Shown piece after piece: positions 22,195-24,943 of a DNA stretch of 64,000 bases. Both the position numbers and the translations under genes were made by a program. Every line of letters starts with the position of its first letter. Positions within the stretch are counted from its first letter, which is position 1. Below the pieces are notes generated by a model. That model was not told the DNA's origin. It worked only from the letters and a program-made list of their open reading frames with translations, and did no database searches. This DNA is from Escherichia coli (GTDB taxonomy: Bacteria; Pseudomonadota; Gammaproteobacteria; Enterobacterales; Enterobacteriaceae), in assembly GCF_048403405.1 (NCBI RefSeq), contig NZ_CP183129.1; one strand, written 5' to 3'.

Positions 22195-23697
22195 TTACGC
22201 TACAGCAGCTTTCGCCGCTTTGTCTGCAGCGTCATCCTGCGTCATGCGGTGCAGTTTCGGCGCGGTCAGCAGCATCAGAACTGCAATAACGGCAGTAGCG
22301 ACACCAATCTGCAAGAATACGCGACCATAGACTTCCAGTGACATCAGCGGATCGGTAACGTTATCCGGCACAGCCATCATACCCGCAACATAACCACCAA
22401 TCAGGTTTGCACCGGCAGTGGTCAGGAACCAGCTACCCATAATGAAGCCCATCAGACGCTGCGGAACGAGTTGTGGGACCATTGCCAGACCCAGACCAGA
22501 GATCATCAGTTCCCCGATACTCTGCAGGCCATAGCTCGCGACCAGCCAGCTTACAGACACGATACCAGCGTCAGACGCGAATTTCGCACCCAGCGGCAGA
22601 ATCAGGAACGCACCAGAACACATCACCATGCCGATTGCAAACTTGGTTGGCATCGGCAGGGTATCGCCCATCTTGTTATAGATAGCGGCCAGAATCGGAC
22701 TACCGATGATGATCCAGAACGGGTTCAGTGCCTGATACTGCTCAGGTTCTACGGCCAGACCCAGAATGGAGTGCTCAACGTTACGAATCGCAAAGAAGTT
22801 CAGTGACGTTGGCATCTGGCTGTACAGCACGAAGAAGATAATGGCTTCGAGCATCAGGATGAAGGCAACGATCATTTTACGACGCGCAGCACCTTTCATC
22901 GCGAAGGCTTCTTTACCGAAGATAACCACAATACCGAAGGCAACAACGCCCAGCGCCATACGCGCAACTTCCTGATTGTGCAGCAGCCAGGTGGCGATAG
23001 CGATCAGTGCCACAACACCAATAATGGTCAGCAGCAGGTTACGGTAGTTGATAGGCTCGAAGTCTGGTTTTGAACCGTACTGTTTAACCCAGCGTTGGCA
23101 GAAGGCGAAGTTAACGATAGTGATCAGCAGGCCTACAACGCTCAACGCAAACGCAACACTCCAGCCGTATTTCGCGGCCAGCCACGGGGTGGCGATCATA
23201 GAGAAGAAAGAGCCGATGTTGACGGACATGTAGTACATGGTGAATGCACCGTCCAGACGCGGGTCGTTTTTCTCATAGCATGTAGAAAGCAGAGAAGACG
23301 GGTTAGCTTTAAACAGGCCGTTACCGACCGCAATAGCCGCCATACCCATATAAACGATACCGGCGTCGTGACCAGACCAGGCAACCAGAGCATAACCAAT
23401 CGCCAGCACAATAGCGCCAAGCATAATTACGCGTTTAGTACCCAGTACCTTGTCACCTAACCAGCCGCCGATAGCGACCAGACCATAAACCAGGGCACTA
23501 AAGGAAGAGAAAAGGGTGATTGAATCCGCTTCAGACATACCCAGTTGTTTAACCAGGTAAACAGCCATAATTCCTTGTAGGCCGTAATAACCAAAACGTT
23601 CCCATAACTCAATCGAGAAGATGAGATAGAACGCCTTCGGTTGTTTGAAAGCGTTCAAACTGACGCTTTCAGTTGGTTTTTGGTTTGCAGTGGACAC
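22195..23697 (-). CDS. dtpA: Proton-dependent di/tripeptide permease (POT family), GTG start
   Basis: 500-aa ORF; SD AGAGG upstream. Confidence 0.93.
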
Positions 23698-24281
23698 TTT
23701 TACCTCTTTTTTTACATCCCATATTAACGGGGGTGCTTTCTCGCGTTATGCCTAAAAAACATACGCGCAATTGTTATAGTGGGAGGGGAAACGGCAGGTA
23801 ATGTTCACTATCTTGCACTTTCAGACAAGTCCTTTGTAATAATCTGTTACATATAACTGAGGCGGGGAATTCAACCATTCCGGGAAATGTTATCCAGCGT
23901 TAAATTTTTCAAAAAACGTAACGGCAGATTTTTTCACTACCCTGAGAGGGGGATGATGGCTTAACGGCGATATGTTCTGCTATTTAGCGTTTTTCCTAGT
24001 GAGATAGTCCAGTTTCTGAAAAATAGCCAGTGTAATGTTTTGTGGGTCAATATTTGTTGCGTGTGTAAATTTAAATGATTTTAACCTAGTTCTTGCAATG
24101 TTTTTACATTGCCACAGCATCGTGATCTTGATCACGAATGAATAGAAAATTTCGCTATTAAAAAAACAATTAACCTGCATTTTTGGTTATCCGCAAACGG
24201 ATTACCTGATGATAATGCTAATCAATGGCATCATTGACGTTAAAAAGATGTTTTAAAAGAGGATAAAGAAAGGTTATCAAT

Positions 24282-24301
24282 GGGGTAATTGGTGTTACCC
24301 C
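24282..24301 (-). terminator. Hairpin GGGGTAA-TTGGTG-TTACCCC immediately 3' of the nth stop
   Basis: Perfect 7-bp stem, then U-rich tract on the minus transcript. Confidence 0.45.
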
Positions 24302-24307
24302 TTTTCT

Positions 24308-24943
24308 TCAGATGTCAACTTTCTCTTTGTATTCACAAAGATCTTCAATAATACAAGAGCCACAGCGAGGCTTGCGGGCAATACAGGTATAACGCCCGTG
24401 CAGGATCAACCAATGGTGGCAGTCGACTTTAAACTCTGCCGGAACCACTTTCAGTAGCTTTTCTTCTACCTGTTCGACGTTTTTCCCAGGCGCAAATTGA
24501 GTACGATTACAAACGCGGAAAATGTGCGTGTCGACAGCAATAGTCGGCCAGCCGAATGCAGTGTTTAATACGACGTTGGCTGTTTTACGACCTACACCAG
24601 GCAGGGCTTCAAGCGCAGCACGATCTTCCGGAACCTCGCCATTATGCTGTTCCAGTAAGATACGGCAGGTTTTGATGATATTTTCTGCTTTGCTGTTATA
24701 AAGCCCAATCGTTTTGATATAGGTTTTCACCCCTTCAACGCCCAGTTCAAGCATCGCTGTAGGCGTATTAGCCACCGGGTAGAGTTTCGCCGTCGCCTTA
24801 TTAACACTGACATCGGTCGCCTGAGCGGAAAGCAGTACGGCAATCAGCAATTCAAAAGGCGAACTGAAATTAAGCTCGGTGGTGGGATGAGGATTGTTCT
24901 CACGCAGGCGAGTGAGGATCTCCAGGCGTTTTGCTTTGTTCAT
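24308..24943 (-). CDS. nth: Endonuclease III (DNA glycosylase/AP lyase, 4Fe-4S)
   Basis: 211-aa ORF; HhH-GPD; C-terminal Cys cluster. Confidence 0.95.
   Translation of the reverse strand: MNKAKRLEILTRLRENNPHPTTELNFSSPFELLIAVLLSAQATDVSVNKATAKLYPVANTPTAMLELGVEGVKTYIKTIGLYNSKAENIIKTCRILLEQHNGEVPEDRAALEALPGVGRKTANVVLNTAFGWPTIAVDTHIFRVCNRTQFAPGKNVEQVEEKLLKVVPAEFKVDCHHWLILHGRYTCIARKPRCGSCIIEDLCEYKEKVDI

Follow-up and report, generated by a model that had tools for sequence, protein, structure and literature searches.

At ompF, OmpR sites F1 to F3 lie near the -35 element, and a distal site, F4, at about -360 takes part in an IHF-assisted repression loop. At gltBDF and ilvIH, which are organized by Lrp, IHF, and CRP, several global regulators are spread over at least 250 bp upstream of one promoter. 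The region upstream of dtpA (tppB/ydgR), which encodes a peptide and drug (beta-lactam, peptidomimetic) importer, resembles both arrangements. Like ompF, it has a weak sigma-70 promoter with OmpR just upstream of the -35 element, conserved elements several hundred base pairs upstream, and a small RNA (sRNA)-controlled leader about 100 nt in length, and in both cases low OmpR levels activate expression whereas high levels repress it (PMC5175337). It differs from ompF in having one reported OmpR ChIP-exo peak, a distal element consisting of a CRP palindrome and conserved blocks rather than a demonstrated OmpR site, GcvB in place of MicF as the sRNA, and no IHF consensus match that we could find; further, dtpA is described as insensitive to osmolarity (Goh 2004, as reported in PMC5175337). 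With gltBDF and ilvIH it shares the presence of several global regulators over at least 250 bp and Lrp-consensus-like 15-mers, and tppB is among the Lrp-affected genes, but these consensus matches make Lrp a candidate at dtpA and no more. Strict spacing between the blocks suggests a single nucleoprotein complex, as at gltBDF and ilvIH. Similarly, dtpA shares with class I and class II CRP promoters a near-consensus palindrome that is kept across genera and was found by SELEX, but here it lies about 335 bp upstream of the only documented transcription start site (TSS).

The dtpA and nth genes (22195..23697 and 24308..24943, both on the minus strand, dtpA with a GTG start) are separated by exactly 610 bp (23698..24307), which is a long spacer for codirectional E. 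coli genes. The spacer is bare of annotated features, with a GC content of 36.9% compared with 51.0% for the whole window (the 64-kb stretch of DNA analyzed here) and 48 to 52% for the flanking genes. Of 5,426 complete E. coli genomes, 5,423 carry it, free of any annotation; in MG1655 it occupies 1,712,159-1,712,768, has the identical length, and is unannotated, RefSeq listing no noncoding RNA (ncRNA) there. All of this agrees with the initial annotation, which had drawn attention to a 610-bp AT-rich gap upstream of dtpA with several short inverted repeats and no credible open reading frame (ORF). Indeed, four such repeats were located (24282-24301, 24190-24203, 24095-24112, and 24121-24136), and the only ORF of at least 60 amino acids (aa), 23980..24180 on the minus strand, encodes 66 aa, is truncated even in another Escherichia species, lacks positional conservation, and has no match among Pfam and NCBIfam families. 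No paralogous copies of the control module described below are present in E. coli. The nth-ydgR spacer is in routine use as a neutral landing pad, with no phenotype reported.

We consider it probable that the spacer comprises the cis-regulatory region and leader of dtpA together with the end of the rsx-nth operon (Table 1). It is an ordinary, largely known complex promoter, of which a distal module of fixed geometry is the only uncharacterized part, the rest being largely published.

Table 1. Features of the nth-dtpA spacer and its dtpA-side border, listed from nth toward dtpA in window coordinates
Feature	Position	Strand	Remarks
nth (rsx-nth operon) terminator hairpin GGGGUAAC-ACCA-AUUACCCC	24282..24301	-	Begins 7 nt past the nth stop
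nth-proximal filler	24178..24281		Fast-evolving, indel-tolerant; local palindromes at 24190-24203 and about 24209-24240
Palindrome ATCCGCAAACGGAT	24190-24203		Within the nth-proximal filler
Conserved block A	24140..24177		CAGGTTAAT at 24169-24177; T7 run at 24160-24166; Lrp-consensus-like 15-mer TAGCGAAATTTTCTA at 24143-24157
CRP-type palindrome CGTGATCAAGATCACG	24121..24136		Center 24128.5, about -335 from the dtpA TSS
Palindrome GCAATGT-AAAA-ACATTGC	24095..24112		Immediately promoter-side of the CRP site
Conserved block B	23965..24045		AAAACATTACAC; ATTTTTCAGA at 24015-24024; CTATCTCACT at 23998-24007; AGCAGAACATATCGCC at 23966-23981
GadX ChIP-exo footprint	23936..23956		Repressor, center -151 (PMC4918353 supplement)
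Second Lrp-like 15-mer	23925-23939		Adjoins the GadX footprint; match in 19/40 species
Conserved block C AAATTTAACGCTGGATAACATTT	23885..23907		Two AAC-containing half-sites 10 bp apart, OmpR-like, about -92 to -113
OmpR ChIP-exo footprint	23810..23869		Activator, center -46.5 (PMC5438342 supplement)
OmpR core tandem site TGTAACAGATTATTACAAA	23833-23851		Abuts the -35 region, under the ChIP-exo peak
dtpA promoter P1	23800..23828	-	-35 TTGTCT at 23823-23828, 17-bp spacer, -10 AACATT at 23800-23805
dtpA TSS	23793..23795	-	Calculated from peak offsets in two independent ChIP-exo tables; lies 5-7 nt past the -10 element
dtpA 5' untranslated region	23698..23795	-	96-98 nt
Conserved CU-rich, then CA-rich leader 5' end	23770-23791	-	
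Leader hairpin 1	23742-23767	-	Covarying
Leader hairpin 2	23718-23731	-	Conserved; A-run after it
Shine-Dalgarno (SD) sequence AGAGG	23703-23707	-	dtpA GTG start at 23695-23697
Predicted GcvB R1 pairing site (CUGCAAACCAAAAACCAAC...)	23662..23690	-	Codons 3-12, just outside the spacer

At the nth end, a stable hairpin follows straight after the nth stop codon in every species examined (median dG of -15 kcal/mol); its sequence is unconserved and its U-tail is weak. The A-run that precedes it forms a U-run on the plus strand in E. coli, so that the terminator looks bidirectional. The adjoining filler averages 0.37 in pairwise identity, and between 93 and 160 bp separate block A from the nth stop. 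In Kosakonia, a 152-aa ORF is inserted in this filler, outside the region of fixed spacing.

At the other end of the spacer, P1 is the best positionally conserved sigma-70-like element, present in 35 of 40 species. Its core is weak, with consensus matches at 4/6 positions of the -35 element and 3/6 of the -10 element. A strict consensus promoter scan of the spacer returned no strong sigma-70 site, which fits an activator-dependent promoter without being positive support for one. The TSS was derived from the offsets of two ChIP-exo peaks, that of OmpR at dtpA (1710621-1710680, "Act," -46.5; PMC5438342) and that of GadX (1710534-1710554, "Rep," -151; PMC4918353), with U00096.2 coordinates converted to window positions by p = 23697 + (1710793 - x). 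Further, an A-to-T change 108 nt ahead of the GTG (position -108, window position 23805, converting AACATT to TACATT) raises dtpA mRNA about 23-fold and swept in long-term stationary-phase cultures (PMC7858067); starving cultures repeatedly select dtpA expression by this single -10 mutation. The ChIP-exo offsets and this up-mutation rule out TATAAC (23774-23779) as a -10 element with a 70-nt leader; with the -10 element placed at AACATT, TATAAC falls within the transcript, at about +15 to +21 of the leader. The published TSS does not support the long 5' untranslated region first suggested for this gap; it gives a leader of about 96 to 98 nt and not about 600 nt.

The OmpR core site beside P1 is invariant, and its pattern is present in 40/40 species. 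A PdtpA-lacZ fusion spanning -201 to +15 depends on OmpR and is repressed at high OmpR levels (PMC5175337), in agreement with the initial annotation, which had described dtpA as reportedly OmpR controlled; PMC5175337 credits this control to Goh 2004. A tandem site abutting the -35 element and a weak core, together with the OmpR dependence reported in the literature (PMC5175337), place P1 among the OmpR-activated sigma-70 promoters. Because this fusion shows both activation and repression, sequence farther upstream than -201 may not be needed under laboratory conditions. Upstream of the OmpR peak, block C has an identity of 0.87 and an invariant length, with the OmpR-like pattern in 34 of 40 species. 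As block C lies outside the reported peak, we only infer that OmpR may bind it, and the single peak leaves OmpR occupancy of block C or of the distal AACAT motifs unsupported.

Block A forms the upstream edge of the region of fixed spacing. The zone containing block A and the CRP core (24122-24176) has an identity of 0.72 and is 55 bp long in 38 of 40 species. An Lrp-like match with three or fewer mismatches occurs in block A in 31 of 40 species, and judged from sequence, block A may be bound by Lrp or another protein. The neighboring palindrome, which most genera read as TGTGATCnnGATCAC, agrees with TGTGA-N6-TCACA at 8 or more of the 10 core positions in 57 of 72 orthologous spacers and is the sole match to the pattern GTGATCNNGATCAC in the window, where 0.09 would be expected. 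CRP and FNR sites are told apart by G versus T at position -7 from the center; the palindrome has the CRP-type G, indicating a CRP-type rather than an FNR-type site, and FNR was rejected as its binder. Genomic SELEX identified tppB as a new CRP target, with CRP binding in vitro somewhere at tppB (PMC3105977). With respect to P1, the class I and class II spacings (-41.5, -61.5, -71.5, and so on) are not observed, and the distance is too great for activation of either class. Neither strand carries a conserved core promoter at the right distance from the CRP site.

At the position of the palindrome next to the CRP site (24095-24112), other genera carry GATAAC..ATGTTAA..TGTT. ArcA was considered beside the CRP site and rejected, as only 11 of 40 species, E. 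coli not among them, have the ArcA-like direct repeat, and dtpA is missing from ArcA ChIP tables. Block B has an identity of 0.64 and is 81 bp long in 40/40 species, with internal spacings of 17 and 26 bp in nearly all of them. A YdcI ChIP-exo study reports the dtpA intergenic region. Scans of the spacer with IHF, Fis, Nac, and LTTR-dyad consensus sequences gave no conserved match.

Spacing between the blocks is near-invariant in about 80 Enterobacteriaceae species, with no indel across 250 bp and at most 1 bp of difference across 380 bp. The interval 23796-24045 has the same length in 40/40 species, 24046-24176 differs by at most 1 bp, and anchor-to-anchor distances are invariant among species; the spacers between the conserved blocks have identities of only 0.42 to 0.50. 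Poorly conserved spacers lie at 23858-23884, 23909-23964, and 24046-24094. As length controls, the leader ranges from 101 to 108 nt and the neighboring dtpA-gstA spacer from 98 to 166 bp, in addition to the variable filler. Intolerance of indels ends exactly at the start of P1, and the transcribed leader tolerates them. The conservation profile shows no 10- to 11-bp periodicity. It has a peak at roughly 33.5 bp, for which no suitable null was compared. Taken with the OmpR-dependent promoter, the OmpR and GadX footprints, and the CRP site, these further conserved blocks bear out the complex promoter that was one of the readings offered at the outset.

Within the leader, 7 of the 8 pairs of hairpin 1 have changed on both sides, and the hairpin is 81% paired; hairpin 2 is 98% paired, and the two jointly reach 87.8% compared with 32 to 46% when slid. 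The whole-leader fold has a z-score of -0.30. Conservation and covariation analysis across Enterobacteriaceae, which the initial annotation had named as a check, thus finds covariation in hairpin 1, and it finds no consensus structure from 24190 to 23870. With two simple hairpins and no Rfam match, the leader does not resemble a riboswitch or a structured leader. Pairing of the CU-rich 5' end with the SD sequence (CCUC with GAGG in the E. coli minimum free energy fold) is predicted in 27 of 32 species (0.77 versus 0.68 after shuffling of the 5' 25 nt); it was rejected as evidence, the shuffled value being nearly as high and both sides being invariant.

GcvB acts on tppB in Salmonella through its region R1 (PMC9299463, PMC4474525), as expected from the earlier statement that the gene is an sRNA target there, and the tppB-GcvB pair was also recovered by RIL-seq in E. 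coli. For E. coli and for six further genera, RNAduplex places GcvB nt ~60 to 92 on the C/A-rich stretch and predicts a seed of 7 to 8 bp, UGCAAAC(A)/UGUUUGCA; the R1 duplex energy is matched by 22% of shuffled targets, and prediction with full-length GcvB was meaningless. As at dppA, oppA, gltI, and other GcvB-regulated genes, the C/A-rich stretch of dtpA adjoins the start codon and regulation is R1 dependent in Salmonella. It differs from those targets in having its predicted site within codons 3 to 12 instead of the leader, with an energy like that of shuffled controls.

The conserved distal blocks could also be read as part of a transcribed element. In one such reading, which we regard as improbable, block A and the CRP site constitute a divergent promoter for an unannotated, CRP-controlled plus-strand sRNA or regulatory transcript, running from 24168-24177 to the hairpin and U-run at 24282-24309 (about 130 to 140 nt) and convergent with nth. 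The plus strand does carry a terminator-like hairpin with a T-run, conservation drops abruptly at 24177, the would-be start, and plus-strand 24168-24310 is the only part of the spacer that folds better than shuffled sequences (z = -2.46, 3/200). A TATTAA at 24156-24161 would put CRP at about -40, and 15 of 40 species retain, at a constant position, an alternative element, TAGAAA-16-AACAAT. However, these candidate -10 elements are weak or lineage specific: the class II -10 position is variable in Klebsiella and Enterobacter, and the TAGAAA/AACAAT pair would put CRP at about -48.5, a nonactivating position by established spacing rules. Further, the body of this RNA would coincide with the least conserved and length-variable filler, and its U-run occurs in E. 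coli alone, other genera lacking the A-run ahead of the hairpin. Rfam searches, run permissively for the region itself and at gathering thresholds for eight orthologous loci, returned chance matches only (snoRNA-type, Bacteroides sRNA; E > 0.7), so neither E. coli nor eight other genera provided a match, and MG1655 has no ncRNA annotation. A short plus-strand RNA specific to E. coli is possible.

Slightly less likely again is a second, distal dtpA promoter near the CRP site, which would extend the leader to about 300 to 390 nt and make the blocks roadblock sites or RNA elements within it. A promoter is normally found close to a strong CRP site, TAAAAT at about 24077-24082 could act as a -10 element in E. 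coli, and TTGYC...CARG between the -35 and -10 elements of P1 shows paired changes between clades. Yet TAAAAT is unconserved and would put CRP at about -58, and on the dtpA strand no positionally conserved -10/-35 pair follows the CRP site. RNAalifold, applied to six subwindows on both strands, finds structure in the leader only and an energy of 0 for 24190-23870. Both published tables are built on one TSS, at -96/-98 from the GTG, and indel intolerance stops at the start of P1, unlike in the known transcribed leader; nothing appears under dtpA among the Term-seq supplement entries listed, a weak argument. A small protein encoded in the spacer, such as the 66-aa ORF or a shorter one, is scarcely credible. 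ORFs of 20 to 66 aa exist in several frames, but on neither strand is there one whose start, frame, and stop are all retained from genus to genus, and the cross-genus peptide matches come from the conserved DNA blocks, whichever frame is translated. In the other Escherichia species the 66-aa ORF is shortened to 38 aa, three ORFs gave no Pfam or NCBIfam match, and the conservation lacks 3-nt periodicity. The earlier suggestion of an unannotated sRNA or small protein is not supported as a conserved feature, given the absence of an Rfam match, of a conserved ORF, and, on either strand beyond the leader, of a consensus structure. The zero RNAalifold energy and the absence of a conserved ORF, Rfam match, or protein family indicate that the distal region acts as DNA rather than as RNA or protein.

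In the preferred reading, a dtpA control region and leader following the end of the rsx-nth operon, the nth terminator hairpin and about 130 bp of unconstrained filler would be succeeded by an upstream control region of roughly 380 bp (24177 to 23796) with protein-binding blocks at fixed distances. These would comprise CRP at about -335, blocks A and B, the GadX repressor at -151, a site resembling that of OmpR at about -100, and, at -46.5, the OmpR activator. The weak sigma-70 promoter TTGTCT-17-AACATT would need OmpR bound beside its -35 element, and the 96- to 98-nt leader would then present two hairpins, an A-rich SD region, and the GTG start, with GcvB repressing translation through base pairing to C/A-rich sequence where the coding part begins. 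We infer that the distal blocks and OmpR may form one stereospecific DNA-protein assembly, looped or wrapped in the manner of ompF (with distal F4 and IHF) or of Lrp-organized promoters, through which signals of carbon, amino acids, acid, and the envelope would be integrated on P1. Our tentative proposal, which could well prove wrong, is that 24177-23796 is one fixed-geometry, enhanceosome-like module, in which the CRP site and blocks A and B, possibly with Lrp and/or YdcI, stand in register with GadX, OmpR, and P1. If this is true, almost no insertion or deletion has been tolerated in the 380-bp module since the Enterobacteriaceae diverged. In a weaker variant, block A would fire a CRP-dependent divergent transcript, and the act of transcription rather than its sequence would matter.

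The new point at this locus is an upstream region of 250 to 380 bp that takes substitutions and essentially no indels, a pattern that provides a cheap comparative signature of stereospecific promoter architecture. A false lead is also removed, as the 610 bp hold no conserved hidden sRNA, small protein, or giant leader. Landing-pad insertions on the promoter side of about 24177 would disrupt the conserved control region. Finally, the convergence of CRP (carbon), GadX and YdcI (acid), OmpR (envelope), and GcvB and possibly Lrp (amino acid) on dtpA helps to explain why this gene is selected under starvation.

The spacer between nth, the last gene of the rsx-nth operon, and the peptide importer gene dtpA (tppB, ydgR) spans exactly 610 bp (23698..24307). 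Its GC content is 36.9% (whole window, 51.0%), and its one ORF of at least 60 aa encodes 66 aa, which bears out the initial annotation's description of a 610-bp gap lacking a credible ORF. The spacer is single copy; of 5426 complete E. coli genomes, 5423 contain it, without any annotation beneath it. In MG1655 it is likewise 610 bp and unannotated, differing by 13 substitutions and no indels. A single DtpA protein scan gave 80 Enterobacteriaceae loci (Escherichia, Citrobacter, Salmonella, Klebsiella, Kluyvera, Enterobacter, Lelliottia, Kosakonia, Trabulsiella, Atlantibacter, Franconibacter, and Siccibacter, among others), and in each one nth is the gene directly upstream of dtpA. Spacer length is 570 to 640 bp in nearly all loci and ~1175 bp in Kosakonia. 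A MAFFT alignment of 73 spacers (40 once redundant ones were removed) is non-uniform and divides into four zones: the nth end with filler, a control region, the dtpA promoter P1, and a leader. Overall, the spacer is probably a control region with P1 and a short leader.

Across the compared species, no ORF has a start, frame, and stop that are all conserved (in one other Escherichia species the 66-aa ORF is only 38 aa long), and Pfam and NCBIfam searches of three spacer ORFs returned no match, leading us to reject the small protein that had been proposed. A conserved structured RNA is likewise unsupported upstream of the leader: RNAalifold over 24190-23870 gives an energy of 0 on both strands, and Rfam searches of the spacer found no match.

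Features of the nth-dtpA spacer and flanking genes, in window coordinates
Feature	Coordinates	Strand	Sequence or description
nth	24308..24943	-	same strand as dtpA
Zone 1	24307-24178		nth end and filler
nth terminator hairpin, E. coli	24282-24301		GGGGUAAC-ACCA-AUUACCCC
Block A	24140-24177		CAGGTTAAT, T7 run, AAATTTTCTAT
Lrp-like 15-mer	24143-24157		consensus scan, 31/40 species
CRP-type palindrome	24121-24136		CGTGATCAAGATCACG
Block B	23965-24045		conserved block
GadX footprint	23936-23956		converted from PMC4918353 table
Lrp-like 15-mer	23925-23939		consensus scan, 19/40 species
Short A-rich element	about 23922-23939
Block C	23885-23907		AAATTTAACGCTGGATAACATTT
OmpR-like tandem pattern	block C		consensus scan, 34/40 species
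OmpR footprint	23810-23869		converted from PMC5438342 table
Block D	23796-23857		OmpR site and promoter P1
P1 -35	23823-23828		TTGTCT
P1 -10	23800-23805		AACATT; 17-bp spacer from -35
Zone 4, leader	23795-23698	-
Leader 5' end	23770-23791		CU-rich then CA-rich, almost invariant
Leader hairpin 1	23742-23767		sequence variable, pairing kept
Leader hairpin 2	23718-23731		sequence and pairing conserved
dtpA Shine-Dalgarno (SD)	23703-23707		AGAGG, after A-run, before GTG start
dtpA (tppB/ydgR)	22195..23697	-	GTG start

Published ChIP-exo tables for OmpR (PMC5438342) and GadX (PMC4918353) both state peaks relative to the transcription start site (TSS). With the dtpA start at 1710793 in U00096.2 (the U00096.3 value is larger by 1976), the TSS back-calculates to U00096.2 1710695-1710697, or window 23793-23795, 96-98 nt 5' of the GTG; as a check on the conversion, the ompF row of the OmpR table gives the known ompF TSS. 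The leader is therefore ~96 nt, not the long 5' UTR initially suggested. TTGTCT-17-AACATT, the spacer's best positionally conserved sigma-70-like element (35/40 species), lies exactly at the ChIP-exo-derived position, placing P1 here with weak hexamers. An independent genetic result is consistent with this placement: an A-to-T mutation at 'intergenic (+503/-108)' swept three of four long-term stationary-phase populations and raised dtpA mRNA ~23-fold (PMC7858067). Position -108 corresponds to window 23805, where the mutation turns AACATT into TACATT at its first base. A conserved TATAAC (23774-23779) is ruled out as the -10 by the ChIP-exo offsets and the -108 mutation, and sits at ~+15 to +21 of the mRNA.

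Upstream, zone 2 (24177-23796) consists of conserved blocks (A to D) interspersed with diverged spacers, and here the predicted complex promoter and OmpR control both hold. The OmpR ChIP-exo peak (U00096.2 1710621-1710680, 'Act', centre -46.5; PMC5438342) adjoins the -35 as an activator site, and a -201..+15 PdtpA-lacZ fusion is OmpR-dependent and repressed at high OmpR (PMC5175337). The GadX peak (U00096.2 1710534-1710554, 'Rep', -151; PMC4918353) lies upstream as a repressor site, and a YdcI ChIP-exo study lists the dtpA intergenic region as well (PMC6237786). A conserved CRP-type palindrome, variable in its central bases, matches TGTGA-N6-TCACA at 8 or more of its 10 core positions in 57 of the 72 orthologous spacers, and is the sole such match in the 64-kb window (0.09 expected); tppB is among the new CRP targets identified in vitro by genomic SELEX (PMC3105977). 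The Lrp-like and OmpR-like consensus matches are leads rather than demonstrations, and every protein assigned to block A, B, or C is likewise putative, placed there at the level of consensus. In E. coli NZ_CM172481.1 (hit H23), the control region is divided between two places, with the break at about query position 82 (window ~24095); an insertion separating block B from the CRP site is the probable cause.

Despite only 42-50% identity, the inter-block spacers hardly vary in length. From 24045 to 23796 (250 bp), every sub-segment has the same length in 40/40 non-redundant species; between 24176 and 24046, lengths stay within 1 bp of each other, with one extra base in Escherichia. Distances between anchors are 74 bp from B3 to C (69/69 loci), 56 bp from C to D1 (76/76), and 39 bp from D1 to the -10 region (81/81). 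Block A lies 364 bp from the -10 region in 52 of 62 loci and 365 bp (four loci) or 363 bp (two loci) in another 6; in the remaining 4 the anchor matches appear to be mis-placed. As controls from the same genomes, the transcribed leader ranges from 101 to 108 nt, the nth-proximal filler from 93 to 160 bp, and the neighbouring dtpA-gstA spacer (~105 bp) from 98 to 166 bp. Since the constraint on zone 2 is neither protein-coding nor structured RNA, the remaining reading is a DNA-level spacing constraint imposed by proteins. The conservation profile of 23796-24176 shows no 10-11-bp periodicity; the top spectral power of per-column conservation, at ~33.5 bp (about three helical turns), marks a candidate period.

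It is very unlikely that dtpA has a distal promoter, P2, with a 300-390 nt leader: downstream of the CRP site there is no conserved core promoter, the upstream region shows no RNA structure, and indel intolerance stops at P1, while the known leader accepts indels. Transcription might instead run the other way, from a CRP-dependent divergent promoter in block A, yielding a + strand RNA of ~130-140 nt with its 3' end at the nth hairpin. A TATTAA does lie at class II distance from the CRP palindrome, conservation ends at the predicted +1, the E. coli + strand has a hairpin with a U-run at the nth end, and the putative RNA has a folding z of -2.46 (E. coli). However, its body would be the spacer's least conserved and most length-variable part, the U-run is restricted to Escherichia, the -10 position varies in other genera, and MG1655 carries no annotation there, so that such an RNA seems improbable.

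A stable hairpin straight after the nth stop codon in every species (median dG -15 kcal/mol) is the operon terminator; its sequence differs among genera and its U-tail is weak. The filler beyond it has a pairwise identity of 37%. Citrobacter (L014, L008, L016, L017, and other loci) carries a second, sequence-conserved hairpin, CAUAACGAUUAGUUAUG, just past the terminator and ~30-55 nt after the nth stop, which Escherichia lacks. In Kosakonia, an opposite-strand ORF for a 152-aa predicted membrane protein lies between nth and block A (L058 1832..2290, -; also in L046, L047, L054, L056, L057, L061, and L071). This insertion doubles the spacer and leaves the ~370-bp dtpA control region untouched.

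The leader contains a covarying hairpin. In hairpin 1, both sides change in 7 of 8 pairs, and pairing holds in 81% of cells; in hairpin 2 it holds in 98%, with a few compensatory changes. For the two helices combined, the paired share is 87.8%, versus 32-46% with partners slid by 1-3 columns, and none of 500 shuffles reaches the observed covariation score. In the E. coli MFE structure, CCUC of the 5' element pairs with the SD; because both sides are invariant and predicted SD occlusion hardly changes when the 5' 25 nt are shuffled (0.77 versus 0.68), we do not count this pairing as evidence. Control of tppB by the sRNA GcvB, a repressor that uses its R1 pairing region, is published: it was verified in Salmonella and also turned up in RIL-seq of E. 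coli (PMC9299463, PMC4474525). The initial annotation was thus correct about sRNA targeting, but the predicted site is not in the leader: RNAduplex places R1 on C/A-rich codons 3-12 (seed UGCAAAC(A)/UGUUUGCA; window 23662-23690) in seven genera, with energy no better than for shuffled targets.

Several smaller features surround the start codon. An AUG-UAA mini-ORF (23712-23717, -), without an obvious SD, lies between hairpin 2 and the dtpA SD and is kept in most genera, replaced by GCGUAA in Salmonella and ACGUAA in Trabulsiella. The GTG start is invariant (80/80 loci), and in most genera besides Escherichia, Citrobacter, and Salmonella an out-of-frame ATG overlaps it (UAUGUGUC; 23695-23699, -). 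A terminator-like + strand hairpin and T-run at 23645-23672, antisense to the first dtpA codons, is likely a chance match.

Because CRP at ~-335 cannot use class I or II contacts, we propose that blocks A and B may join with the CRP site in a single stereospecific assembly, either looped or wrapped, that acts on P1. A specific assembly of fixed geometry is a tentative idea, with the odds somewhat against it; it would be comparable to the far-upstream F4 site of ompF and to Lrp/IHF/CRP-organised promoters such as gltBDF. The promoter, OmpR dependence, GadX and YdcI binding, CRP SELEX, and GcvB control are all published, so the finding is already known and ordinary. Our literature search found no description of the distal blocks' conservation depth, the near absence of indels over 250-380 bp, or the covarying leader hairpin; given the conserved blocks, indel scarcity, and hairpin, the distal module would reasonably merit a study of promoter architecture, though the object's category is unchanged. 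The nth-ydgR spacer (MG1655 1,712,159-1,712,768) is also a popular 'neutral' landing pad, receiving large constructs as well as promoter MPRA libraries (PMC2847246; bioRxiv 207332, 2020.01.04.894907); for such use only its nth-proximal ~130 bp look neutral, and only ~24178-24281 looks unconstrained.
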